A stretch of DNA of 21,170 nucleotides from an uncultured Pseudomonadota bacterium. Its GTDB lineage: Bacteria; Pseudomonadota; Gammaproteobacteria; Burkholderiales; Methylophilaceae. The stretch covers positions 1 through 21,170 of the forward strand of contig CAILFU010000159.1 in assembly GCA_903833595.1 (NCBI GenBank), given 5' to 3'. Position 1 is the stretch's first letter. Each line of letters starts with the position of its first letter. The notes under the pieces were generated by a model. That model was given only the letters and a program-made list of their open reading frames with translations, was not told where the DNA came from and ran no database searches. The translations under genes and the position numbers were made by a program. Shown here in pieces: positions 2,317 to 18,970 of this stretch.

Positions 2317-2350
2317 AGACATGCGAATGTCTGCATCTGGCCCTTAGTAC
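2317..2350. repeat. Left half of a short REP/MITE-like repeat (hairpin AGACAT-gcga-ATGTCT, then TGGCCC)
   Basis: The AATGTCTGC core and the TGGCCC arm match the repeat family seen at 11455, 15476, 16279 and 18834. This half ends at the direct repeat TCAGTCGAC (2351-2359). Confidence 0.5.
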
Positions 2351-2410
2351 TCAGTCGACCTATTAATCGGCTTGCTTCTAAGCCGCCGCTTAATCATAGA
2401 TTAAATTTAC

Positions 2411-2578
2411 TTAGAAAGCAGCTGCTAACTGCTGCTGCCCAGCTTTTATCTTCTGCCTTGCGCGTTCACCCTTAACGGCCTGCTGACTACGCTTAACCTG
2501 CGCTTGCATGCCCTTAATTCTAGATTGATCTGGGGTAAGTGGTTTTTGGGGTTTGACTGCAAATTCATAGAAACGCAT
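2411..2578 (-). CDS. Small basic hypothetical protein, 55 aa (MRFYEFAVKPQKPLTPDQSRIKGMQAQVKRSQQAVKGERARQKIKAGQQQLAAAF); not in the supplied ORF track
   Basis: Hand translation gives ATG at 2578 and TAA at 2411-2413. A strong Shine-Dalgarno AAGGAG lies 8 nt upstream of the ATG. It is the last gene of a minus-strand run beginning at 3241. Confidence 0.5.
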   Translation of the reverse strand: MRFYEFAVKPQKPLTPDQSRIKGMQAQVKRSQQAVKGERARQKIKAGQQQLAAAF

Positions 2579-2627
2579 GGCGTTAGCTCCTTTTAGTTAT
2601 TTAGCTAACAGCCATGCGCTGATTTTG

Positions 2628-2789
2628 TTACTGTACCTGTGTTGGTAAGCTCATCACATTAGCCACGCCAAACATAGCGTTAAATTGACCCCTTGCCGCT
2701 AGTGCGTTCATTGCTTGTAGACGCACACGTGTAGCTTGCATCATGTTCCCGCCAATAGGTACTTTTACCCAACATTCATAATTTTGCAT
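2628..2789 (-). CDS. Small hypothetical protein, 53 aa (MQNYECWVKVPIGGNMMQATRVRLQAMNALAARGQFNAMFGVANVMSLPTQVQ); not in the supplied ORF track
   Basis: Hand translation gives ATG at 2789 and TAA at 2628-2630. It starts 11 nt after the stop of the 146-aa gene, preceded by GGGGAA. The RBS is weak, so this is less certain than the 55-aa ORF. Confidence 0.4.
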   Translation of the reverse strand: MQNYECWVKVPIGGNMMQATRVRLQAMNALAARGQFNAMFGVANVMSLPTQVQ

Positions 2790-2800
2790 TTTGCATTCCC

Positions 2801-3241
2801 CTATGATTTAAAGTTACTACGCAGAGCGCCACTGACTTGTTCAATCTGTTGATCCAACTCGCCAGCTTCCACTGCTTTTTTAATGATCTCTAATGTACTT
2901 ATCAAATCTGTCATAGCGGCCAGCTCAACACTGGGTTTGCCTTTTGCAAGCTCAATCACCTTAGCGCCATAACGCACCGACACACATACCGTGCCGTTCT
3001 CTGCATTAAACCACCAAGGCCGAACATGCTTAACTAAGCTAATGGTTCTTGTTTCACCCGTTTCAGCGTTCTTCACCGTTTTCTGTTTAGTGAGATTAAG
3101 TGGCTCACCTGTGATCTGCGATTTAGCCAAAGCAATCTGTTCCCATAACTTCTCAGTGAGTTTATGGCGACGTTTCACAATTTCAGGTAAATGCTGCGGT
3201 TTGACTGTAGCAACTAGTTTTAAACTTTGTAATGTGCTCAT
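2801..3241 (-). CDS. Hypothetical protein, 146 aa, of a type I associate with integrative elements (RPWWF ... VRYGAK.IELAKGK ... AGELD)
   Basis: The ORF is intact and has a strong RBS (AAAAGGAGAATTAC-ATG). I cannot name a domain with confidence. Confidence 0.8.
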   Translation of the reverse strand: MSTLQSLKLVATVKPQHLPEIVKRRHKLTEKLWEQIALAKSQITGEPLNLTKQKTVKNAETGETRTISLVKHVRPWWFNAENGTVCVSVRYGAKVIELAKGKPSVELAAMTDLISTLEIIKKAVEAGELDQQIEQVSGALRSNFKS

Positions 3242-3296
3242 GTAATTCTCCTTTTGATTGAATGAAGCAGCACTACATTAGTGTCGAGACCGCCAG

Positions 3297-3332
3297 ATGG
3301 ACAACCTGAATCTGCCTGATCAGTCATTTTGG
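3297..3332 (-). promoter_or_regulatory. Conserved promoter-proximal box, copy 1 (ATGGACAACC...GCCT...AGTCAT.TTGG on the plus strand)
   Basis: About 30 of 38 aligned positions match 8194-8231. The box lies 55 nt upstream of the start codon at 3241; the other copy lies 52 nt upstream of the start at 8141. Read on the minus strand, TTGTCC followed 17 nt later by CTAATG is a possible -35/-10 pair. Confidence 0.45.
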
Positions 3333-3353
3333 TAAAATTGATTTCACCAAAAT
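3326..3353. promoter_or_regulatory. 28-bp near-perfect palindrome ATTTTGGTAAAAT-tg-ATTTCACCAAAAT; candidate operator
   Basis: The 13-bp arms match at 12 of 13 positions with a 2-bp spacer. It overlaps the distal end of box copy 1, upstream of the minus-strand operon. Confidence 0.5.
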
Positions 3354-3421
3354 CCCACAAAAACCGTGTTTTTCCCCTAAAAAAATATATCCGTTCATTT
3401 CTCTTTGATAAATATTTGTAC

Positions 3422-3669
3422 GAGTTGCTTAAGTTACTAGTGGTTTGTAGTTGCTGGTGATTTGGAGTGACAGAAGAGAAAAATGAGTGTTTGTAGTTGC
3501 TTGTTAGTTGCTACTTGAAATAGTTACTTGCACTAGCAACTTGCAACACGTGAGACAAATGAGAAGCCAAGAACAGCAACTACGACAGGCAACTTTAATT
3601 CACAGCAACTCCTTTTCTTCTTCTGCAACTTCTACACCAAGCAACAGGCTACAAGGCGACTAAGCAACG
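3422..3669. repeat. Iteron array: AGTTGC-core repeats facing right (3423-3511), then GCAACT-core repeats facing left (3536-3669)
   Basis: The exact 12-mer TTTGTAGTTGCT occurs at 3444-3455 and 3490-3501, and its core GTAGTTGCT occurs inverted at 3575-3583. AGTTGC also occurs at 3423 and 3506. GCAACT occurs at 3536, 3576, 3589, 3605 and 3625. GCAAC(A/G) occurs at 3543, 3641 and 3664. About 0.1 hexamer hits would be expected by chance in 250 bp. Confidence 0.7.
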
Positions 3670-3696
3670 CGCTACTTGATAACGGAGAACGAGAAC

Positions 3697-4158
3697 ATGA
3701 AGGACAGAGAAATTGCAGTACGGGGTTTTATTAATGAGAAATTTGGCAGCACTTACGGCAAAGGGTTATTTCACCGCGCCATCTATAACGGATCAATAGA
3801 ACTACGCGATCCATATACTAAATACCTAATCGATTTATTTGAATACCAGCGTTGGGATAATACGGCTAGATCAGAAGACCAACTTAAATGGTCAAAACAA
3901 CTGGCTGAAGCTGACATTAAAAGTGCACCAGAGGCTTTGGTGTCATGGATACAACACTACGATCCCATAAGTAAGTCAAAAATAATGGTTGATGGGGTTT
4001 GCGTCTATCTACCTAATAGCCAAGAGCTTTACCTCAACATCAATGATTCAGCGCATGACGTCGTTAACGAATGGACATTAAAGACTAAGCACTGCACGAA
4101 GACCGGCCCAAACAAACCGATCTTTATTGCCAGCAATGCAGATCTTGGCGTTTTTTAG
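3697..4158 (+). CDS. Hypothetical protein (153 aa from the ATG at 3697; the ORF track starts at the TTG at 3676)
   Basis: The ORF is intact. GGAGAA lies 7 nt upstream of the ATG at 3697, which favours that start over the TTG at 3676. I recognise no motif. Confidence 0.7.
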   Translation: MKDREIAVRGFINEKFGSTYGKGLFHRAIYNGSIELRDPYTKYLIDLFEYQRWDNTARSEDQLKWSKQLAEADIKSAPEALVSWIQHYDPISKSKIMVDGVCVYLPNSQELYLNINDSAHDVVNEWTLKTKHCTKTGPNKPIFIASNADLGVF

Positions 4159-4187
4159 TTTAAGCACTAGCAACATAAGAAAAACAT

Positions 4188-4209
4188 GACCGTTACTTAA
4201 GTAACGGTC
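4188..4209. other. 22-bp perfect palindrome GACCGTTACTTAAGTAACGGTC (8-bp arms around CTTAAG); a terminator stem or a recombinase/operator site
   Basis: It is perfectly self-complementary. It lies 30 nt after the stop at 4158 and 190 nt before the recombinase gene. No U-tract follows it. Confidence 0.6.
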
Positions 4210-4399
4210 GTGAGTAGGGTGGTTGGTTAGATTGGAGATAAATAATACAAACAGTCAGGTTAAGAAAAGTAACATTTCCTATACCAAAACTGTATGTCAT
4301 TGAATCTTGGAAGGTCTACCAAACAATCTTTTCGGTCGCTCTTTTGAGATAAAGAAAACACAATAGCTGTGTATTTTTATTTGTCAAAAGGAGTAAAAA

Positions 4400-4966
4400 A
4401 TGGCACAAGCCAAAACATTCACACAAGCAGAACTAGATCAAGTGCTGCGCTTCGTTAGTACTAAAAAATACGCAACGAGGGATCGCGTCATGATCCTCAC
4501 CAGTTTTTGGTCAGGAATGCGCGTGAAGGAGATATCGCAGCTTAAGATGGGCGACGTCATTAATGAAGATGACACCATAAAATCCGAAATACGCCTAAGT
4601 GCCGCCCAAACTAAAGGGGAGCAGGGGCGCATAGTTTTCATCCCAAACAAACTACGCGATGAATTAGCGGCTTATCTTAAAACACGCAAAATAAAAAATG
4701 CCGACATCCCGTTCTTTCATACTGATAGACGGCTTGGGTTTAGTGCTAGCGGTTTATGCCAGTGGTTCTTTTGGACCTACCGCAGGGCAGGCATTAATGG
4801 CGCCAGCAGCCATTCTGGCCGTCGTACGATGATTACGCAGTTGGCTAACAAGGGGATTGGCGTGCGCGTTCTTGCAAGTCTTGCAGGTCATAAATCCATT
4901 ATGGTCACGCAACGATACATAGATGTTAACGATGACATGAAAAGACAGGCCATAGAATTATTATAA
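4400..4966 (+). CDS. Tyrosine recombinase/integrase, minimal catalytic-domain-only form (188 aa, FimB/FimE-sized)
   Basis: The catalytic signature is present in order: SGMRVKE (Arg I), KGEQGR (Lys), HSGRR (His-x-x-Arg), AGHKS (His), TQRYI (Tyr nucleophile). The RBS is strong (AAAGGAG). Confidence 0.9.
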   Translation: MAQAKTFTQAELDQVLRFVSTKKYATRDRVMILTSFWSGMRVKEISQLKMGDVINEDDTIKSEIRLSAAQTKGEQGRIVFIPNKLRDELAAYLKTRKIKNADIPFFHTDRRLGFSASGLCQWFFWTYRRAGINGASSHSGRRTMITQLANKGIGVRVLASLAGHKSIMVTQRYIDVNDDMKRQAIELL

Positions 4967-5031
4967 TTGCCGCTATTATCAATACGATTAAACATAGGTA
5001 TTATTGATAAATTATTAAGATCAAGGCTAAT

Positions 5032-5313
5032 ATGACTAAATCTGAGTTAATTGCACTAATTGCTAACCGATTTCCTCAATTAGTCGCTAAAGACACTGAC
5101 TTATCAGTAAAAGTGATTATTGATGCCATATCTGACAATCTTGCTATTGGTGAACGCATTGAGATCCGAGGCTTTGGAAGTTTTAGTTTAAATTATAGGC
5201 CACCACGTTTGGGTCGCAATCCTAAAACTGGTGCTAAAGTCCAAGTGCCTAAGAAATATGTCCCGCACTTTAAGGCAGGTAAAGAGTTACGTGAACTAGT
5301 GGATCTTAGCTAA
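5032..5313 (+). CDS. ihfB: Integration host factor beta-subunit family protein (HU/IHF fold), element-borne paralog
   Basis: [48 protein letters not shown] aligns almost residue for residue with the E. coli IhfB arm region as I recall it. The 93-aa length is typical. The context (next to the recombinase, not next to rpsA) suggests an accessory copy. Confidence 0.88.
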
Positions 5314-5335
5314 GCACCAAATATCTGTCGGCGAG

Positions 5336-6292
5336 TCACTTCCCGACTTCCTTGAAGGCATTAATCTCAGCAATTATCTTTTCATAACCGTTCTGGTCAT
5401 TCATATCAAGTGGCAGTTGGCTCGTTAGAAATGTATATTCGCGCGCCACGGCGCTTTGGTTAAACCAATCACCATTAGCAATAGCCGCATTCATTTCTTT
5501 GCTCTGCGCTACACTCCAACGAACATGAGGCTTAACTTCGGCGCATGACAGGTAACGCCCAACTTCAACGTTGGCAATAATCTTTTCTGCTTTCTTTTTC
5601 TTTTGACTCACCAGCGCCCTTGTTCTGTTTTGCTTATCAAGTCTAGTGTCTAAGCTGTCATGGTTTTGCAACACTGCAGACGGGCTAATATGAATAGCAC
5701 TGCCAATTTCATAAGACTTCATTTTAGCCAGCCGCTGAGTGCTTGATGGGTCAATTTGATTAATACAATCCACTACACGTGCAAGCAAGGCTATCTGATA
5801 AATGATAGGAATTTGTTTGCGTTCGTTGGTTTTAGTTTTAAGTAGTATGTGTTTGGCGCTAGATTGAAACTGACGTGCAATGGTAGGGTAGAGGTGAATC
5901 AAAGTAAGAACTTGATCCAAGATGTCTTGGTCTGACATATACAACGGAATTTCTAAGAGTGCGTGCTGATCACGTTCAATCATTAGTAATTGCGATTGAA
6001 TAGTGATGTCAGTGACTTTAGGTGGCTTTGTGGTTTCTGCAAACACTAGCTCAGCCTTATTCTGCCACCACTCATTAAAGGTATCGTATTCGAATACATT
6101 GCCGAAGGTATGCCATACCGTACACATGCGTAAATCTAAGCAATGACCTTCTTCATGACATAGCCACCAATAATCCTGACTTAAACGTAAAAATGCGAGC
6201 CACCAAAGGTATTCACTTTTACCTGCAAAACTTAGTTCAGCTTTTTTACTTGGAAAGGGCAAGCTTGGAAGTCCCGTAAACCAACTCGTCAT
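5336..6292 (-). CDS. Hypothetical protein with a Trp-rich N-terminal motif (EYLWWLAFLRLSQDYWWLC ... FNEWW); possibly a regulator of island functions
   Basis: The ORF is intact. The track start at 6298 is a TTG. The ATG at 6292 has AAGAG 6 nt upstream and is preferred. The N-terminus resembles WxWEFLRR-type regulator-associated domains seen next to integrases; that resemblance is from memory only. Confidence 0.75.
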   Translation of the reverse strand: MTSWFTGLPSLPFPSKKAELSFAGKSEYLWWLAFLRLSQDYWWLCHEEGHCLDLRMCTVWHTFGNVFEYDTFNEWWQNKAELVFAETTKPPKVTDITIQSQLLMIERDQHALLEIPLYMSDQDILDQVLTLIHLYPTIARQFQSSAKHILLKTKTNERKQIPIIYQIALLARVVDCINQIDPSSTQRLAKMKSYEIGSAIHISPSAVLQNHDSLDTRLDKQNRTRALVSQKKKKAEKIIANVEVGRYLSCAEVKPHVRWSVAQSKEMNAAIANGDWFNQSAVAREYTFLTSQLPLDMNDQNGYEKIIAEINAFKEVGK

Positions 6293-6553
6293 GATCAACT
6301 CTTTATTATTTTTAAGTTATCGATGTGGCGTTATTTTTAAGACATGTATTTCTAATGAGCATTGTCGCCAATGAAGTTAGTCGTCGACAGGTCAATTCAA
6401 ACTAGCAGACTAAAAATTCATATTTAACCGTAAAAATCAACCTTTCATAGGCATTTGTTTTTACACGCATTTTAAATTTCATCTTTTTTACTTAGATAGG
6501 GTGGCTTGAAAGCCACGTATATCAACGATTTACATGCAAATCATAATATTCTA

Positions 6554-6583
6554 TTAATTTGTCGCTTACCCCCGACAAATTAA
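6554..6583. promoter_or_regulatory. Inverted repeat TTAATTTGTCG-(8 nt)-CGACAAATTAA in the divergent intergenic region
   Basis: The 11-bp arms are perfect (6554-6564 and 6573-6583) and are followed by T-rich sequence. It sits 75 nt upstream of the 6658 start. Further hairpins lie at 6503-6518 (GTGGCTT/AAGCCAC) and 6609-6630 (ATGGCAT/ATGCCAT). Confidence 0.5.
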
Positions 6584-6657
6584 TACTTTATTTTCGTAAG
6601 CTAGTTATATGGCATTAATAAGTGATGCCATTTAATGACTAATTTAGGAGAATAATC

Positions 6658-7722
6658 ATGGAAACGCAAACTTCAGTGCAAACTAAACCTACCGCTAAAA
6701 TCACTATTCCACCAAACGGCAATGTGATTGTTGATGAAGATCAAGATGAATTTGATCTAGATGATTTTGAACTGAACATATTTACGCCACAAACCAATAT
6801 GGCAAAACGCCCCAGTGACGTTGATGAGATTTTAGAACAAGTAGATAAGGTGCTGGCTAAAGGTAAGACCTTAGGCGCCTTGAATGACAAGTTTGTTGAT
6901 ACGTATGTGATCAAAGGCAATAAAGAGCTTTATGAGTTATTGGCGGCTATCTATGGCTTTATGCTACAAGTGAATGAGTCGGCCTATAAAGAGCATATTT
7001 TAAAACGTATGCGCGAACAGTTGAAAGATAGTTTTGACATTGCTTTACAAGAAAGCAGCACTGTTGAATCGATTGTTGTGCGATATGTGGTGCCCAAAGA
7101 TCGTCAAACAGCATTTAACTATGCGCGTGTTTTAAAGGTAGCTTTTATTGAAAACATCGCAGCAAAAGACTTGTCTGGCTACATTAGCGGGCGCGGTGGC
7201 ATTTCTAAAATACAAGATACGCTTGAGAATGTACAAAATGCAGTAGAGGAGAAAAAATCGATTAAGAGAAAACTGTCGTTATACAAAAAAATCATTTTAG
7301 CTAGAACTAAGGTTGCAAGTAAGCCTATTAAAATTAACAAAGGCAAAAAGCTAAGTCTTGTTCCTTATGGTACTAAACCTGCTATGTTTGACTTTGCTGT
7401 ATTGAGCAACATCGGCGGAGAAGACTACCGAATTCATCAAGTCGTGCAATTGCCTTTAGCTGTCGGGGATCAGTGGTTGAATTATATTAGCCAGAATGTC
7501 ATTGTGGATGATCTTGAATTGGTTCAAGATAAACTCGATGAGTTAAGGGCTAGACTAGGCATTGCTGAAGGCTATGGCATGCAGCCTGGTGATAAAGGGT
7601 ACAAGCCTTTGGTGATGAATCCACAAGCTGACGCTAGTGCAGAAGAAGTAGACGTTGATGATTCCAATGACTTGGAAACACCTGAAGAAGCCGTTGAACG
7701 GGTTGCACTTGAACATCCTTAA
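6658..7722 (+). CDS. Hypothetical protein, 354 aa, with acidic N- and C-termini
   Basis: The ORF is intact with a strong RBS (TAGGAGAATAATC-ATG) and is followed by a clean terminator. I saw no Walker, HUH or other catalytic motif. Confidence 0.8.
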   Translation: METQTSVQTKPTAKITIPPNGNVIVDEDQDEFDLDDFELNIFTPQTNMAKRPSDVDEILEQVDKVLAKGKTLGALNDKFVDTYVIKGNKELYELLAAIYGFMLQVNESAYKEHILKRMREQLKDSFDIALQESSTVESIVVRYVVPKDRQTAFNYARVLKVAFIENIAAKDLSGYISGRGGISKIQDTLENVQNAVEEKKSIKRKLSLYKKIILARTKVASKPIKINKGKKLSLVPYGTKPAMFDFAVLSNIGGEDYRIHQVVQLPLAVGDQWLNYISQNVIVDDLELVQDKLDELRARLGIAEGYGMQPGDKGYKPLVMNPQADASAEEVDVDDSNDLETPEEAVERVALEHP

Positions 7723-7747
7723 ATAGCAGGTTGGGTAAGCCGCCATA

Positions 7748-7768
7748 ACCGCCTTCGGGCGGTTTTTT
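7748..7768 (+). terminator. Rho-independent terminator between convergent genes
   Basis: The stem is AACCGCC-ttcg-GGCGGTT, followed by a T-run. It overlaps the stop codon of the minus-strand gene 7767-8141. Confidence 0.8.
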
Positions 7769-8141
7769 AATATTCACTGGTTAGCATTACTACCCAAAAT
7801 TCGCCTGACCACACCCCATACAGCCTAATGCTATCTAGCGGAAAATCCGTATATTCGACATATTGCTTAGCTAGCTGATTGCCATTGCCATCATCAATAA
7901 TAATGTTAGCGCCGAAGTTATTTTTGGTTAAGATTAGGCAGGTGAAGTATTCTTTGGCTAGATCAACCTCAATTAGATGCGATGCATATAAATCCATTAG
8001 CCAATAACAACTTGCCGTCTCAGCGAGATAATGAGCACCTTCAGTTAATACAGTTTTTGGGGAAATGCGCACATACTTAGTCGTGCCAGTGAAGTAGGAG
8101 AGGGCGTTTTTTAGTTCACGTGCTAGTGCTAGATCTGTCAT
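7767..8141 (-). CDS. Hypothetical protein, 124 aa, resembling the conjugative-element family I recall as DUF6876 (F.GT..Y.R ... LAE....YWL.D ... DGNG ... YTDFPL ... MLTSEY)
   Basis: The ORF is intact. The motif pattern is matched from memory, so the family name is not certain. It is preceded by box copy 2. Confidence 0.7.
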   Translation of the reverse strand: MTDLALARELKNALSYFTGTTKYVRISPKTVLTEGAHYLAETASCYWLMDLYASHLIEVDLAKEYFTCLILTKNNFGANIIIDDGNGNQLAKQYVEYTDFPLDSIRLYGVWSGEFWVVMLTSEY

Positions 8142-8193
8142 TTTCTGTGCTCAACGTTGTTATGTTGATACAAGTATTTGATCTTTTGACGCA

Positions 8194-8231
8194 ATGGACA
8201 ACCGAAATATGCCTCATTAAAGTCATCTTGG
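8194..8231 (-). promoter_or_regulatory. Conserved promoter-proximal box, copy 2
   Basis: ATGGACAACCGAAATATGCCTCATTAAAGTCATCTTGG matches 3297-3332 at about 30 of 38 aligned positions. It lies 52 nt upstream of the start at 8141. On the minus strand, TTGTCC followed 17 nt later by AATACT is a possible -35/-10 pair. Confidence 0.45.
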
Positions 8232-8290
8232 CATAAGTTATTTTTGACAGACGGCTTACTGGAAGGGCGATTCAGAGGCTATCAGTCGAC

Positions 8291-8315
8291 AACGGGCCAT
8301 AAGCGGAAGTTCGCT
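8291..8315. repeat. Right half of a short REP/MITE-like repeat (GGGCCATAAGCGGAAGTTC)
   Basis: It matches the 3' ends of the family (compare GGGCCAAAAGCGGAAGTTC at 11565-11583). It is immediately preceded by the direct repeat TCAGTCGAC (8282-8290). Confidence 0.5.
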
Positions 8316-8368
8316 CGGCAAATATTTTTTATAAAGACAACCTTTTACTGAGGAATTTTCACTGTCAC

Positions 8369-8761
8369 CTAATTTTTAAGTGATGTTTTGGCTGTGTTTG
8401 TTGTGCTTGAAGTGGTTCCATCCCCATATTTGGTAAAGACAGTTTCTGAGTTCACTGAGTAGAATACCGAACTAATACCAGGCACTACTGACACTACTGG
8501 ATTAGTAGTACCATCGGCAAAAGTATAGGTGATGGTTTTAGTAATATGGTCATCAGCCCATGTCACAGGTGCACTAGTAGCAACGTTAGTTACACTAGTG
8601 CCATTGGAGTAGTTAACAACCTCTACATTCGCAACGTATGTTTTTGATGTTACTAATGCACTTGGAGTGACTGCAACAGTATTGCCTACGTCCAACCCAG
8701 CACAAGCAGTTAAAACGGCAGAAATTATAAAAGTTATTAAAACTATAGATAGTTTAGACAC
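8369..8761 (-). CDS. Lipoprotein carrying one copy of the 64-aa module found in the S8 protease
   Basis: It has a signal peptide with a lipobox (VLTAC-AG) and a GTG start 16 nt after the upstream stop. TSAPVTWADDHITKTITYTFADGTTNPVVSVVPG parallels the protease repeat. Confidence 0.8.
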   Translation of the reverse strand: MSKLSIVLITFIISAVLTACAGLDVGNTVAVTPSALVTSKTYVANVEVVNYSNGTSVTNVATSAPVTWADDHITKTITYTFADGTTNPVVSVVPGISSVFYSVNSETVFTKYGDGTTSSTTNTAKTSLKN

Positions 8762-8777
8762 TGGCAGACATCCGTTC

Positions 8778-10097
8778 TTAATTAATAATTACTTTAGTGA
8801 GCATTTGCTTAGTCGTGAGTAGTGAATAACTAAGCACATAAATTGAGCATGATGCGAGACATAGCGCCATTAGCATGATGGTTGAATGCATAAATATCAC
8901 TGCTAAACCTGCATTGATAATTGTGGCGCCCCATATATAAGGGGCTACCCGATTGTTCCTGATACGCATTTTTTTAGGACACGTATTCATGAATTGACAG
9001 GCGGTTCCATCGTGATTGATTTGTATAGCTTGATGCACGCACGGCTTAAATTGATTTCTATTGAGCAATGATTTAAAAATAATCTGATGCAGATGACTGG
9101 CATCTGGCGCTGTGTTAGCAGTTTTATGAATAAATGTTCGTCGGAACATCGTAAAAAGCGTCTCAAACACTGGATAGATGAAGATGGCTAATGGAAACCA
9201 TGGGGAAACTGTTGGATTATGGTGCAATAACAGCAAGCAAAGTTCTGCTGAAATAAACCCGATAAAGTACGACCCGCCGTCCCCCAAGAAGATTTTTCCG
9301 CGCGGCCAATTCCATACTAAAAATCCAAGAATAGCGCCAATCATAATGATGCTGATGAAAACAATCATTGCATCATTCACCAGAAAAGCAGCTATTGTGA
9401 TGGCGGCGAGTGCGACAACCATCACACCACCGACTAAGCCATTGTAACCATCGATCAAATTGATGGCGTTGGTGAATCCCCCGACGGCAAACAATGTAAA
9501 TAGCAACGAGATTACTTCAATTGAAAGCAGCTTATCCATCCAGACTACATCTACATGATAAAGAATGAGTCCTTTATCAATAAGGCAAGCTGCGATTGCC
9601 GCCGAAACCATGGTAAGCAACAGGCGCTGTGCAACCCCTACATTCTTAAAGATGTCTTCAGCTAATCCACCAAAAAATACAGGAATGGAGGCCATGATTA
9701 ATGGCATGAAGTAGAAATTTTTATATAGCCGCGTCTCTTCAAATAAGCCCGATAAGACACATCCTGATAATGCGGCTATAAAAATGGCTACGCCAGCAAT
9801 TCTAGGTGTAGGCTCTAAATGAAATGCTTGTACCTTTCCAGTAAAAGGATCGGCAGTTAAATGCTGATGAAGATGTGCATAGCGCACAATAAAATCACAG
9901 ATGAGAAAGCTGACTATAGCTGCTAGCATAAAAACCAAGATGATATTGCCTATCATCGAAGCATTCACTGACATCAGATTATCAGGATGGCTATTTGTAT
10001 CCTTAATAAGCGGGTCGCAGAATAAGAATAGTGATATCACAACCACGAGAGTTGCAATTAAAAGAGGTTTAGATAATTTATTGTAGTGCTTATTCAT
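8778..10097 (-). CDS. Polyprenyl-phosphate sugar-1-phosphate transferase (glycosyltransferase family 4, WecA/MraY/WbpL-like)
   Basis: It is a polytopic membrane protein with NAINLIDGYNGL (the NxxNxxDGxDGL motif), FLGDGGSYFIGF (the GDxGS motif), LEPTPRIAG and PDASHLHQ. It carries ED where WecA has DD (LAEDIF). Confidence 0.88.
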   Translation of the reverse strand: MNKHYNKLSKPLLIATLVVVISLFLFCDPLIKDTNSHPDNLMSVNASMIGNIILVFMLAAIVSFLICDFIVRYAHLHQHLTADPFTGKVQAFHLEPTPRIAGVAIFIAALSGCVLSGLFEETRLYKNFYFMPLIMASIPVFFGGLAEDIFKNVGVAQRLLLTMVSAAIAACLIDKGLILYHVDVVWMDKLLSIEVISLLFTLFAVGGFTNAINLIDGYNGLVGGVMVVALAAITIAAFLVNDAMIVFISIIMIGAILGFLVWNWPRGKIFLGDGGSYFIGFISAELCLLLLHHNPTVSPWFPLAIFIYPVFETLFTMFRRTFIHKTANTAPDASHLHQIIFKSLLNRNQFKPCVHQAIQINHDGTACQFMNTCPKKMRIRNNRVAPYIWGATIINAGLAVIFMHSTIMLMALCLASCSIYVLSYSLLTTKQMLTKVIIN

Positions 10098-10182
10098 ACA
10101 TCACAAACCCGCATAGCGTATTAATTAAATGTCGATTTACATCGTTTCCTTAATTAATTATATATGAATATGAATATGAATA
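10094..10182 (-). promoter_or_regulatory. Promoter/leader cassette, copy R1 (includes the start codon of the transferase gene); (TGAATA)x3
   Basis: It fills the whole 88-nt gap between genes. Blocks of 16, 26 and 26 bp are identical to copy R2. The minus strand reads ...TTCATATTCATATATAATTAATTAAGG..., which contains a TATAAT. Confidence 0.85.
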
Positions 10183-10185
10183 AAT

Positions 10186-10764
10186 TTATAGGATAGAGGG
10201 GGTAATTTTTTTATGTAAGAGTGAAATTAGCCGCAGTATTTGGGCGATGAGATAGAAAATAATGAGGGTGCCGAGCATGTCCCCAACAAACATTGGGAAG
10301 AATCCCTTTAAACTATTCGCCCTATCAGTGAAATAAAAATAGAGGTTGCTTAATAAAGCGTTCGATAACGCACCAGTTATAGCAAAGGCTAACAGCTGCT
10401 TACTCGATAATCCTTGCAGTGTATCAGGGATGTTAAACCACCACTTGCAAGCACGTTTAGCTACCATCGGTGACATTGCTGAAATCACAGCTAAGTAAAT
10501 TACATAACCACTGAGTTCTGCTTCGTTAGTAATAACAGAGCCAATAAAAAGCCCTAGCACTCCAGCCCAACCAAAGATAAAGACAGAAATCATACGAATA
10601 CCAGCGGGTAGAAATACCCAGTACACACGTGGATTATATTCAAAATAAGCAAATAGCCATAAGCTCATTCGATAGAAAACTATCCAAGTAAGGACAACGA
10701 CAAAGACATCAATAATTGTAGATTTAATAATTTTCATTACTGCGGTTGTAGTGAGGTTACTCAT
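10186..10764 (-). CDS. Polytopic inner-membrane protein, 192 aa, about 5-6 TM; weak resemblance to MASE1-type sensor modules
   Basis: The protein is hydrophobic throughout. FLPAGIR and FVGDMLG recall MASE1 signatures. That assignment is tentative. Confidence 0.75.
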   Translation of the reverse strand: MSNLTTTAVMKIIKSTIIDVFVVVLTWIVFYRMSLWLFAYFEYNPRVYWVFLPAGIRMISVFIFGWAGVLGLFIGSVITNEAELSGYVIYLAVISAMSPMVAKRACKWWFNIPDTLQGLSSKQLLAFAITGALSNALLSNLYFYFTDRANSLKGFFPMFVGDMLGTLIIFYLIAQILRLISLLHKKITPSIL

Positions 10765-10842
10765 ACATCACAAACCTTATAGAGTATTAATTAAATGTCG
10801 ATTTACATCGCCTTTCTAATTAATTATATATGAATATGAATA
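10761..10842 (-). promoter_or_regulatory. Promoter/leader cassette, copy R2 (includes the start codon of the membrane-protein gene); (TGAATA)x2
   Basis: See R1. The two copies are about 90 percent identical by hand count over 82-83 bp. Confidence 0.85.
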
Positions 10843-10871
10843 GTTTTTATTATTGCGGTTATAGATTGCCC

Positions 10872-11222
10872 TTAAGGGTTCGCTGAATCAGTAAGACATT
10901 GACCTAATAATGAAAAGTAATGAATACTTAAAGGCGTGTGGCTGATGTATTTAATACGATTATCTTGCTCATCCATATCTAGGCTGATAAAACCTTTTGA
11001 TCGCAGCGCCTTTAAATGCCGATGTACGGTACTGGGCGACATTTCAGATGATGAACGCATAGTCTTAGATACGCTAAGTTTTGTATTTGCCTGCCATGCT
11101 AATGCAAAATAATTCAACAGGTGTTCTTCCATTGGATTTAATGCAGGGAATTGAGTGAGCTCACGAATGGCTTTGGCTAAGTTCAAAAACTTAATGTAAG
11201 TCAATGATGATTGTGTATTCAT
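10872..11222 (-). CDS. Small winged-helix (MarR/ArsR-like) transcriptional regulator
   Basis: SPSTVHRHLKALRSKGFISL is a typical recognition-helix-plus-wing segment. The 116-aa protein sits at the head of the minus-strand cluster and is divergent from the RTX gene. Confidence 0.7.
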   Translation of the reverse strand: MNTQSSLTYIKFLNLAKAIRELTQFPALNPMEEHLLNYFALAWQANTKLSVSKTMRSSSEMSPSTVHRHLKALRSKGFISLDMDEQDNRIKYISHTPLSIHYFSLLGQCLTDSANP

Positions 11223-11454
11223 GGTTGAGAAGACGTCTCAGAATAGTTGTTGAAGCGATATTATCATTAATCTACTACTTTGGTGGTAATTTGCAACCAC
11301 GTTGGTTATATACAACCAAATATATTATTTAATTATCCAGCTAAATTATTTTAACTAATTGATTTTATTAATTTTATATACATTTAGTTAATCTGGCGCA
11401 TAGTTTGCATATATCTCCCTAGATTGTAAAAAGTTTCTCCCTTATTGAACGGCC

Positions 11455-11590
11455 GCTAAGGGTCGGTAGCCACTAAATTCAACGTCTGCTTTAGGGCAGT
11501 TTCACTTCACTTAATACCATAGACCGCTTATAGATAGGCACTTTCAGATGGCGTATGGGTGCTTGGGCCAAAAGCGGAAGTTCAACATTC
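11455..11590 (+). repeat. REP/MITE-like structured repeat, diverged copy A
   Basis: GGGTCGGTAGCCACTAAATTCAACGTCTGCTTTAGGGCAG at the 5' end and GGGCCAAAAGCGGAAGTTCAACATTC at the 3' end match copies B and C. The centre differs. Confidence 0.7.
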
Positions 11591-11790
11591 AGTTAATCTC
11601 ATTCAATTAATCTTTAATTGAGACATTCCATTGTGGCAATCACATAAAGCGATTTGGTGCAACAATCAGTTGGGCGTGATTTGGCGCAAGAGCGCTATCA
11701 ACTCATTTTCAATAAAATAATCTGCAGGGGTCTTAACTGTAGCGGATATCCAAGAAGTTAGCACAATACTTTCTTTCGTATTTTAATTTT

Positions 11791-11838
11791 AGGCGTTTGC
11801 AATTTATCTATACGATAGATTGAGCAGCGCCTTTTTTT
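11791..11838 (+). terminator. Terminator-like extended hairpin plus T7 with no annotated upstream gene
   Basis: AGGCG...CGCCT forms a basal stem around an inner stem ATCTAT-acg-ATAGAT, followed by TTTTTTT. There is no ORF of 60 aa or more on the plus strand between 11223 and 11790. Confidence 0.4.
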
Positions 11839-12104
11839 AAATTAAATCTTATTTTTTCATATTCAATATCATATTAATTGTCATATTTATATTTATTTAA
11901 TTATTATTTGATTTATATCAAATTAATAAAAAATAAATGTAGTAAAGTGCATAAACCATGTCAGGCATTGCATCACACCGATGCCATACGAAGCGGTTCA
12001 TATTATTAATTGCGCGGCATTAATGATTAAATTTTTACGATAAGAAGTTTATTTTTATAAAAATATTGATGGGTATTTTGCGTTGCGTTTAAAGGAGTCT
12101 TTCT

Positions 12105-15440: not shown

Positions 15441-15475
15441 GCTTACACGCTATTTCATCGCTAGGATGTCAATGG

Positions 15476-15613
15476 CTGCTTTGGGTCGGTAGCCACTAAA
15501 CTCAATGTCTGCTTTGAGGTAGATCTAATTCACTTATCCTTTACCTAAAAAATAGTTTGCTATAAAGCAGACGGATATAAATCGGACTTGGGGCACAGAA
15601 AGAGACATTCATT
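15476..15613 (+). repeat. REP/MITE-like structured repeat, full-length copy B
   Basis: It is about 93 percent identical by hand count to 18834-18970. It has an internal 9-bp inverted repeat GTCTGCTTT...AAAGCAGAC and terminal AATGTCT...AGACATT symmetry. Confidence 0.9.
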
Positions 15614-15720
15614 AGTAGATTAACTTAGTAATTTAAGATAAATTGTGCATGTCAATGGAAGTAATTTACTACTAGTAATACAATGAAATTTTTGTAGGCA
15701 ATCTACTAAAGAGGAACATC

Positions 15721-16278: not shown

Positions 16279-16400
16279 GCGACTATCACTTATAGGTCGG
16301 TAGTGACGATTCTCGGTATAGGCTTTGAAGAAAGCTGATTATTAGGCCAAATAGCAGACGATCAAAAACTTCACTCAAGGCCATAAGCAGACTATTAATG
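16279..16400 (+). repeat. REP/MITE-like repeat, diverged copy D
   Basis: GTGCGACT..TATAGGTCGGTAGTGAC parallels GTGCGACT..TATGGGTCGGAAGCCAC at 18824-18853. The 3' end GGCCATAAGCAGAC matches the family. Confidence 0.5.
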
Positions 16401-18708: not shown

Positions 18709-18833
18709 GGCCTTACCTTTAATAATAGAATTACTTAAAGATACATTTTATAGGCACTATTGCAGCTTGAGAATGTGGCATATTGTCGCACTTGAATCCA
18801 GTTAAACGACGTCCATAGTTTTTGTGCGACTGT

Positions 18834-18970
18834 CTGCTATGGGTCGGAAGCCACTGAATTCAATGTCTGCTTTGAGGCAGATCTAATTCACTTATCCTTT
18901 ACCTAAAAAATAGTTTGCTATAAAGCAGACGGATATAAATCGGACTTAGGGCCAATAAGAGACATTCGTT
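18834..18970 (+). repeat. REP/MITE-like structured repeat, full-length copy C
   Basis: See copy B. It lies between the divergent receptor and kinase genes. Confidence 0.9.

Follow-up and report, generated by a model that had tools for sequence, protein, structure and literature searches.

A small, probably integrative mobile element of Methylotenera with a minimal tyrosine recombinase and apparent GGCC boundaries at REP-like sites

Repetitive extragenic palindromes (REP) are the targets of several insertion sequences (IS), among them IS1397/ISKpn1 of the IS3 family and IS621 and ISPpu9/10 of the IS110 family. These IS insert in the center of the repeated palindromes, and their copies are flanked by REP halves. 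Here, we describe a similar arrangement around a block at positions 2339-8298 of a 21,170-nucleotide (nt) metagenomic contig of the Methylophilaceae (CAILFU010000159.1; here, the window). The block is almost certainly a mobile element, and we favor the view that it represents a single copy of an integrative mobile element of ~6 kb that belongs to the freshwater methylotroph Methylotenera. Its nine genes encode p55, p53, a DUF6641 protein, p153, a minimal tyrosine recombinase (Int), an integration host factor (IHF)-beta-like protein, p318, p354, and a DUF6876 protein. Unlike the REP-targeting IS, which measure 1-2 kb and carry a DDE/DEDD transposase, the element is at least 6 kb long and carries a tyrosine recombinase and modular cargo.

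Several systems built on tyrosine recombinases offer further parallels, but each of them, like the REP-targeting IS, has a defining feature that the element lacks. With Xer/dif and the integrative mobile elements exploiting Xer (IMEX), such as CTX phage and the gonococcal genetic island, the element shares a Xer-like catalytic domain and, as we read its junctions, a target of ~30 bp with two inverted arms and a short center. IMEX, however, borrow the host XerCD and a single dif, whereas this element has its own recombinase and occupies at least eight dispersed sites, most of them REP-like. The invertases FimB and FimE are also tyrosine recombinases of ~190-200 amino acids (aa) that are nearly catalytic only; with the aid of IHF they work on inverted repeats, and GGCC is present in the fim repeat TTGGGGCCA too. 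In contrast to the element, they flip a promoter segment of 314 bp and lack mobility, and models built on them score weakly here. Integrons likewise pair a tyrosine recombinase with imperfect palindromes and keep variable cargo by a site just upstream of the recombinase gene, but IntI has ~320-340 aa and an extra domain, whereas Int has 188 aa, the whole platform moves, and attC-like R''/R' boxes are not established. Tycheposons resemble the element as cargo-carrying tyrosine-recombinase elements of streamlined aquatic bacteria. They lie beside tRNA genes (at the 3' end), whereas a tRNA scan of the window found none and the junctions here are GGCC/REP-like.

Searches of the element proteins against Pfam, NCBIfam, and PHROGs found no relaxase, replicase/Rep, capsid, or type IV secretion system family, which sets the element apart from integrative and conjugative or mobilizable elements, although it may still have an oriT, and agrees, for relaxase, replicase, and capsid, with an earlier reading of the window from sequence only (here, the sequence-only reading). 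Phage satellites of the phage-inducible chromosomal island or P4-like kind do not offer a match either: no primase-helicase, capsid-redirecting, or packaging families were found (Pfam, PHROGs), the block had no megablast match among PLSDB plasmids or INPHARED phages, and the sequence patterns expected of the element were absent from IMG/VR. One publication mentions "xerC-bordered insertion clusters" in Methylophilaceae in passing and without further analysis (PMC10872708), and our search of the literature on the marker domains found no paper naming DUF6876 or DUF6641. The family is common across freshwater Betaproteobacteria, and it is uncharacterized as far as could be found.

Int (4400-4966, plus strand) belongs to the tyrosine recombinase superfamily, scoring 78.1 bits with PF00589 against a cut-off of 27.1. 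Its best sequence matches are the catalytic domains of XerA, XerC, and XerD. Aligned with XerD (1a0p), it starts at about XerD residue 106 and runs to the end; the N-terminal DNA-binding domain is absent, and the catalytic residues R41, K72, H138, R141, H163, and Y172 are present. It falls below the cut-offs of the named subfamilies: XerC and XerD equivalogs (TIGR02224, 62.7 versus 335; TIGR02225, 60.8 versus 330), integron integrases (TIGR02249, 39.7 versus 265; NF011946, 15 versus 435), and Fim invertases (NF007370, 35.1 versus 221; NF007371, 26.1 versus 222). The protein is identical to MCX7189836.1 from a metagenome-assembled genome of Methylotenera sp.

Mobility of the block is evident from its contexts. 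Exact-protein look-ups recovered near-identical copies (97.5 to 99.95% identity) in at least eight distinct chromosomal contexts on lake metagenome contigs, and the exact Int, DUF6876, p55, and p354 proteins each led to the same block on contigs with differing neighbor genes; the exact p55 protein occurs in 572 blocks of the index. Neighbors include an outer membrane protein (OMP) and a lipoprotein, as in the window, as well as glycogen phosphorylase, czcCBA, a resistance-nodulation-division membrane fusion protein operon, a molybdopterin oxidoreductase, ZnuA, a TonB receptor by a P4-like island, an acyl carrier protein synthase/fatty-acid cluster, and flagellar and other chromosomal genes. 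The integrated mini-element proposed by the sequence-only reading is thus borne out by the same 5.9 kb recurring in many places. Contexts with an orthologous OMP (86% identical; loci L113 to L116, in our numbering of fetched loci) are without the block and have a repeat resembling miniature inverted-repeat transposable elements (MITE) instead, and in L131 the position after the OMP, here a member of the 90%-identity cluster of the window protein, is taken by a different element. The family to which the block belongs consists of real, active, and abundant small integrative elements.

To locate the ends of the element, we aligned eight left and eight right junctions. Apart from the 9-mer, which varies by lineage (below), the left end reads constantly GGCCC-TTAGTAC-TCAGTCGAC-CTATTAAT and the right end GAGGCTA-TCAGTCGAC-AAC-GGGCC. 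At the eight left junctions GGCCC is unchanged though the preceding base and arm vary, and GGGCC is constant at the eight right junctions; the 12-13 nt beyond each GGCC differ from site to site. L012 and L014 are 99.4% alike and have very different arms, whereas L012 and L124 belong to different lineages, with different cargo and 9-mers, yet share arms and flanks. The left junctions of L028 and L033 lack a REP-like arm and still read GGCCC-TTAGTAC. The most telling comparison concerns a flank (AGAAGCAGACATTCTGGACTTCACC...) that L130 and L031 share without a difference over more than 300 nt; it is joined to the right end in L130 (...AAC-GGGCC/A) and to the inverted left end in L031 (...GTACTAA-GGGCC/A), with the break exactly at GGGCC. 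Both orientations thus occur at the same nucleotide position. It follows from this shared flank that the nucleotides between GGCC and the 9-mers belong to the element and that the junction is GGCC. We are therefore confident that the element is bounded by its GGCC motifs, which lie 9 nt (left) and 5 nt (right) outside the 9-mers. The phosphorylase locus, considered as a second case of both orientations, was dropped: its two junctions lie in different intervening sequence.

In the window, the left boundary consists of a flanking REP-like arm on the plus strand (AATGTCTGCATCT, 2326-2338), the left GGCC (2339-2342, within TGGCCC), and the left end of the element (CTTAGTAC plus TCAGTCGAC, 2343-2359, plus strand). 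The arm behaves as host or target sequence, varying by site while the element stays 99% identical; similarity between copies stops at the GGCC, the putative crossover core at attL; and the left end is identical at unrelated sites. On the right, a conserved plus-strand region (8182-8294) terminates in TCAGTCGAC-AAC-G, followed by the right GGCC (8295-8298, within GGGCCA), the putative core at attR, and by a plus-strand arm (ATAAGCGGAAGTT, 8299-8311) that is host sequence, as L024 and L026 have arm and lipoprotein flank but no block. Homology across lineages extends over the outer ~55 nt of the right end (~8240-8294) and includes a Rep_3-carrying relative described below (alignment A3).

The sequence-only reading had centered on a 9-bp repeat, TCAGTCGAC, of which we find the two copies where it placed them, at 2351-2359 and 8282-8290, both on the plus strand and in direct orientation. 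It had also judged the repeat weak evidence by itself (chance about 0.1), and our own arithmetic agrees: a 9-mer shared between flanks of ~100 and ~230 bp has a chance of ~0.09. As the site of the junction, the repeat did not hold up. The two end 9-mers differ within L124 (TCAGTCGAG left, TCAGTCGGC right) and within L125 (TCGGTCGAC left, TCAGTCAGC right), and the right-end 9-mer of L130 is still more diverged (TCAGGCAGA). Left 9-mer variants track lineage, with TCGGTCGAC in L010 and L029 and TCAGTCGAG in L031, L033, and L124; within a lineage, the 9-mer is constant across unrelated insertion sites. Because the 9-mers are unequal within single copies and track lineage, they do not represent a duplication of the target site or a conserved core of crossover. 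That the repeat is perfect in the window is a lineage-specific feature of the element ends.

What lies outside the GGCC belongs to the target, usually as two inverted REP-like arms of 12-13 nt. At most sites the junction arms fit the palindrome AATGTCYGCTTCT-GGCC-AGAAGCRGACATT (L028 and L033 are the exceptions), and in L014 they are perfectly complementary over the 8 nt visible before the contig end. The window reads AATGTCTGCATCTGGCCC at 2326-2343 (AATGTCTGCATC-TGGCCC) and GGGCCATAAGCGGAAGTT at 8294-8311 (GGGCCA-TAAGCGGAAGTT). Of the proposal that the block splits a REP-like repeat, its position between inverted arms in the window stands, and some sites, L028 and L033, have no arms. The arm pattern AATGTCYGCNNNTGGCCC, allowing at most three mismatches, matches the window five times against 0.70 expected, with further copies at ~11565, 16378, and 18949 beside the two that flank the block; members of the arm family lie right of the block at about 11.5, 15.5, 16.3, and 18.9 kb. 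Four intergenic gaps examined there (11440-11585, 15471-15640, 16340-16395, and 18829-18970) hold composite REP/MITE-like repeats of 105-150 nt, in which three arm units of the AATGTCTGCTTT type each lead into TGGCCC, GAGGCAG, or GGGTCGG. In these host repeats of 105-150 nt, arms surround short inserts, whose starts after TGGCCC resemble the left end of the element (TAAGCAC-TCAGTGAC in L115; TTAGT... in L047). The REP/MITE-like repeats may thus be miniature derivatives in the same kind of site. The site beside the OMP illustrates this variety: the same arm and TGGCCC lead into the block in the window, into a MITE-like repeat in L113, L115, and L116, and into a terminus resembling the right end, that of a Rep_3 element, in L131.

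The junctions are consistent with a simple reaction. Int would excise the element as a circle with joined ends reading ...TCAGTCGAC-AAC-GGGCCC-TTAGTAC-TCAGTCGAC... (predicted circular junction, GTCGACAACGGGCCCTTAGTAC; predicted attP, GGCTATCAGTCGACAACGGGCCCTTAGTACTCAGTCGACCTATTAATCGG). The circle would re-insert at an arm-TGGCCA-arm site, exchanging strands within the palindromic GGCC of that site and yielding attL as arm-TGGCC/C-left end and attR as right end-G/GGCCA-arm. The corresponding empty site is predicted as GACATGCGAATGTCTGCATCTGGCCATAAGCGGAAGTTCGCTCGGC, and a generic REP-like target would have the form AATGTCCGCTTCTGGCCAGAAGCGGACATT. A palindromic core would let the reaction proceed without polarity, and in this model both orientations would arise because the exchanged GGCC is palindromic, whether by insertion or by inversion in situ. 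The IHF-beta-like protein, where present, would be a dispensable DNA-bending helper, and an array of GCAACT sites together with p55, p53, DUF6641, p153, p318, p354, and DUF6876 might serve maintenance or transfer of the free form. That Int acts at GGCC is, in our estimate, the probable case. The circular intermediate, the 4-bp crossover, and Int as the enzyme are steps that we infer, the last because no attP or clean empty site was seen. In favor of Int, its catalytic RKHRHY set is intact and it represents the only recombinase family detected in the element: no transposase or second recombinase family was found in the nine proteins (Pfam, NCBIfam, PHROGs).

Several points weigh against this model. 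Tyrosine recombinases usually exchange strands over a 6-8-bp overlap, for which a 4-bp identity region is short. Beside GGCC, the arms on the element side show poor symmetry, and the right arm differs from lineage to lineage; because of that variation we do not rely on a GTCnRC half-site that the target arms seemed to share with the right end. Near int, a single inverted repeat (4258-4285) is strongly conserved and co-varies; it is unlike the ends, so Int may act there instead. An intact arm-GGCC-arm palindrome (at most four mismatches per arm) was found nowhere in 1.64 Mb of fetched loci. A gapped pattern for the circular or tandem junction under both attP models (the GGCC model and that of the 9-mer, below) had no matches in Joint Genome Institute (JGI) metagenome contigs, a scan uncalibrated for attL/attR content, and the attP and attL patterns of the GGCC model had none in IMG/VR. 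Finally, the pairing of left and right flanks across a 6-kb repeat in short-read metagenome contigs may be chimeric, although each single junction is read directly. As for empty sites, L024 and L026 are weak candidates, in which GGGCCA separates the lipoprotein arm from a weak arm, and TGGCCC-N5-30-GGGCCA was not found in the window or the early fetched loci.

The alternative that survives best, which we consider unlikely though worth keeping in view, is that the element does move to GGCC/REP-like sites, but through a host REP-associated activity or through p318 or p354, while the repeat upstream of int is where Int works, for example to capture cargo, resolve dimers, or invert modules. This repeat has an 11-6-11 form, GGTWAAGAAAA-N6-TTTTCTTWACC, and lies 115-145 nt before the int start in the sampled relatives (L034 to L061), with co-varying arms, from Methylophilaceae to Polynucleobacter and in a more diverged form in Limnohabitans. 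Its conservation across the sampled family favors a function there, as do two further features: similarity between elements starts exactly at the repeat, with variable cargo on the int-distal side, and the repeat is duplicated in L047 and L017. In L047 (8706-9875), two copies flank a 1.1-kb unit that immediately precedes int and encodes another tyrosine recombinase, this one of full length (344 aa); in L017, two copies lie 85 nt apart beside type I restriction-modification (R-M) cargo. The repeat may be the real site of Int, an operator, or a cargo-capture site. The element ends share no motif with it, the 4-bp core is atypical for tyrosine recombinases, and the module from p55 to p153 is inverted relative to int in many relatives, all of which fits this alternative. 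In the window, however, the repeat (GGTTAAGAAAA-GTAACA-TTTCCTATACC) is degenerate, its right arm matching at 8 of 11 positions (in this alternative, the site of Int action would read GGTTAAGAAAA-N6-TTTTCTTAACC), yet the window lineage occupies many sites. Apart from Int, the element shows no recognizable recombinase or transposase family, structure searches with p354 gave no match, and int, DUF6641, and p153 travel together through the family.

A role for the block mainly as an invertible segment in its present place is very unlikely. Here, Int would flip the 5.9 kb in the manner of FimB/FimE with IHF, switching the read-out of neighboring surface proteins, and spread would be rare. The occurrence of both orientations at one site (L130/L031) is compatible with this view, and independent insertion and inversion are indistinguishable there. 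The ends are inverted (TGGCCC ... GGGCCA), Int has the size and architecture of a Fim invertase with an IHF-like gene aboard, and the neighbors are surface proteins with a common domain. Against these stand the transposition-like spread over at least eight distinct sites, the NCBIfam invertase scores far under their cut-offs (35 versus 221), and an IHF-like gene that is dispensable in other lineages.

Still less credible is recombination within TCAGTCGAC itself, as the sequence-only reading had it. The target would then be the hairpin TGGCCC-TTAGTAC-TCAGTCGAC-AAC-GGGCCA, the sequences between GGCC and the 9-mers would be host DNA, the circular junction would read GAGGCTA-TCAGTCGAC-CTATTAAT, and attP would be GGCTATCAGTCGACCTATTAATCGG. 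The perfect direct repeat in the window invites this reading, and REP/MITE copies at orthologous sites (L115, L047) resemble the left junction for 5-22 nt. Besides the unequal, lineage-tracking 9-mers, it has to contend with an inner 17-22 nt that is unchanged even at the armless sites and with the flank that meets either end at GGGCC in L130 and L031, which contradicts the rebuilt empty site ...CCCTTAGTACTCAGTCGACAACGGGCC... as well. That site, as an exact 29-mer, had no matches in JGI metagenome contigs (an uncalibrated scan), though Int is listed from JGI sources. Equally improbable is the absence of any site-specific mechanism, with copies spread by transformation or transduction and homologous recombination via REP-like repeats, or with the varied contexts being chimeras of metagenome assembly: REP-like arms abound in the host, L014 and L125 agree in the left flank and disagree in the right one, and the lipoprotein flank has three partners, yet the GGCC junctions are precise to the nucleotide in every copy, armless sites included, arms of 12-13 nt that vary by site give no usable homology, and the junctions fall within one read length and recur in independent assemblies.

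Returning to our preferred reading of an integrative element bounded by GGCC, its gene content matches that described by the sequence-only reading (minimal recombinase, IHF-beta, iterons, a DUF6876-like gene, and five unplaced proteins), to which DUF6641 can now be added. At the left end lie three minus-strand genes: p55, a basic protein of 55 aa (2411-2578) that is a called gene in all copies; p53, of 53 aa (2628-2789), conserved in relatives; and the 146-aa DUF6641 protein (2801-3241; PF20346, 41 bits; phrog_31551, 93 bits). Between the divergent DUF6641 and p153 genes is an iteron-like cluster of tandem and inverted repeats (3423-3630), AGTTGC four times and then GCAACT five times; these 208 bp hold 9 of the 18 GCAACT sites of the whole 21-kb window (the first four on the minus strand, the remaining five on the plus strand). 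The array might act as an origin of replication, as a partition site, or as a set of operators; no Rep family was found in the window element (Pfam), though this array is present. The p153 gene (153 aa; 3697-4158, plus strand) is a called gene that adjoins DUF6641 in relatives. Downstream of int follow the IHF-beta-like DNA-bending protein (93 aa; 5032-5313, plus strand; NF001222 equivalog, 144 bits versus a cut-off of 115), which is accessory cargo; p318 (318 aa; 5336-6292, minus strand), whose homologs are all hypothetical; p354 (354 aa; 6658-7722, plus strand), whose 46 homologs are likewise hypothetical; and the DUF6876 protein (124 aa; 7767-8141, minus strand; PF21781, 105 bits).

Profile and structure searches on the hypothetical proteins, suggested by the sequence-only reading, yielded the DUF6641 assignment and left five open reading frames (ORFs; p55, p53, p153, p318, and p354) without a family in Pfam, NCBIfam, or PHROGs. 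The AlphaFold2 (AF2) model of p354 (predicted local distance difference test [pLDDT], 71) had no Foldseek match in PDB or BFVD, and its sequence had none in PDB; the AF2 model of p318 was unusable (pLDDT, 43), and no PDB match was found. PADLOC returned nothing for the backbone proteins, an Rfam search of the block gave no match, and the GC content of the block is not distinct.

The cargo of the element is modular. The IHF-like gene is swapped for a zeta-toxin-like kinase and a 68-aa ORF in L012 to L014 and is absent in L125. A HATPase_c_2/DUF4325 protein lies between p153 and int in L028, L031, and L124; ThiF/UQ_con/JAB genes lie past DUF6876 in L017, L127, and L128; and type I R-M cargo lies past p55 or adjoins int in L030, L032, and L127. 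The ThiF/E1-UQ_con/E2-JAB set bears a likeness to ubiquitin-like (Bil-type) defense genes, and an HNH/HIT protein is also among the cargo. PADLOC, run on the zeta-like kinase, its 68-aa neighbor, and the HATPase protein only, made no confident call.

To explore the distribution of the family, we scanned GTDB with one genome per species and found 134 relatives, several genomes holding more than one copy. Identity ranges from 74-97% in Methylophilaceae through ~70% in Polynucleobacter and ~60% in Limnohabitans/Comamonadaceae to ~58% in Burkholderia/Paraburkholderia, and relatives of Int also occur in genomes of Ca. Methylopumilus. Gene content was read from 80 fetched loci among the 134 relatives: DUF6641 accompanies int in most of them, and p153, p55, and p318 do so in many. 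Many Methylophilaceae have the p55-p53-DUF6641-p153 module in inverted orientation to int, with 0-8 kb of cargo between p55 and int. For the distant relatives L035, L042, and L047, definition of the element ends was dropped because of a differing architecture and an interfering tRNA-Phe island. A hairpin (AAGCGTCG-N6-CGACGCTT) stands at the limits of similarity in L035, L040, L042, and L045. A tRNA gene (read as tRNA-Phe) that is intact in L042 (5640-5820) is split at the anticodon loop in L037 (14000-14180) by a larger island containing a family member.

The Rep_3-carrying relative in L131 (6667-7438) follows the orthologous OMP as arm-TGGCCC, ~55 nt like the element right end (inverted), and then a Rep_3 (WH1 plus WH2) gene. 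It looks like a plasmid-like relative using the same site, and its Rep_3 gene hints that free forms replicate like plasmids.

The sequence around the block adds some observations on the host side. The neighbors are related, as the sequence-only reading had proposed: the S8 protease (31-1632, with N-terminal repeats) and the 130-aa lipoprotein (8369-8761) share a domain of ~50 aa, VTWAxDHxTKTITYTFADxTTNPVV, with 64% identity. The two may have been neighbors before the block inserted. About 6 kb upstream of the window start, a 207-aa gene with only a Phage_integrase domain (L001:3565-4188) lies by TonB-receptor, S8, and OMP genes; considered as a paralog that recognizes the arms, it was dropped as only distantly related to Int. 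In a comparison of the window with L024 and L026, the lipoprotein-GT4-MASE1 segment (8291-11948), with an identical right arm, has three left partners depending on the contig, namely, the block, a flagellar fliR operon, and a UbiE-type methyltransferase, which suggests rearrangement or cassette-like movement at the REP-like site. L010 (304-6900) and L047 (2037-8620) have in common a czcCBA cassette and the arm that follows it, TATAACTGCTTTT-GGCC. In L010 the cassette is beyond the left end; in L047, which stems from a complete genome, it is found between the p55 and int genes of a relative.

A bolder idea, which we regard as improbable, is that the many intergenic REP-like arm-GGCC repeats of Methylotenera are working recombination sites of the minimal recombinase family and support integron-like cassette shuffling across the chromosome. 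Were this true, any DNA between two arm-GGCC sites could be excised, inverted, moved, or captured beside the element, with the czcCBA operon, the lipoprotein-GT4-MASE1 unit, and the defense genes as candidate units, and a self-mobile platform would carry the shuffling system in bacteria that are highly abundant in fresh water.

Methylophilaceae, Polynucleobacter, and Limnohabitans rank with the most abundant bacteria of fresh water, and the movement of their flexible genes is poorly understood. The family described here is a testable gene vehicle for these organisms, small, very common, and carrying defense and resistance cargo. If Int acts as we propose, a catalytic-domain-only recombinase working free of orientation at a palindromic 4-bp core would be an unusually compact system and a possible tool, and the REP-like repeats would be both landing pads for the element and sources of genome rearrangement.

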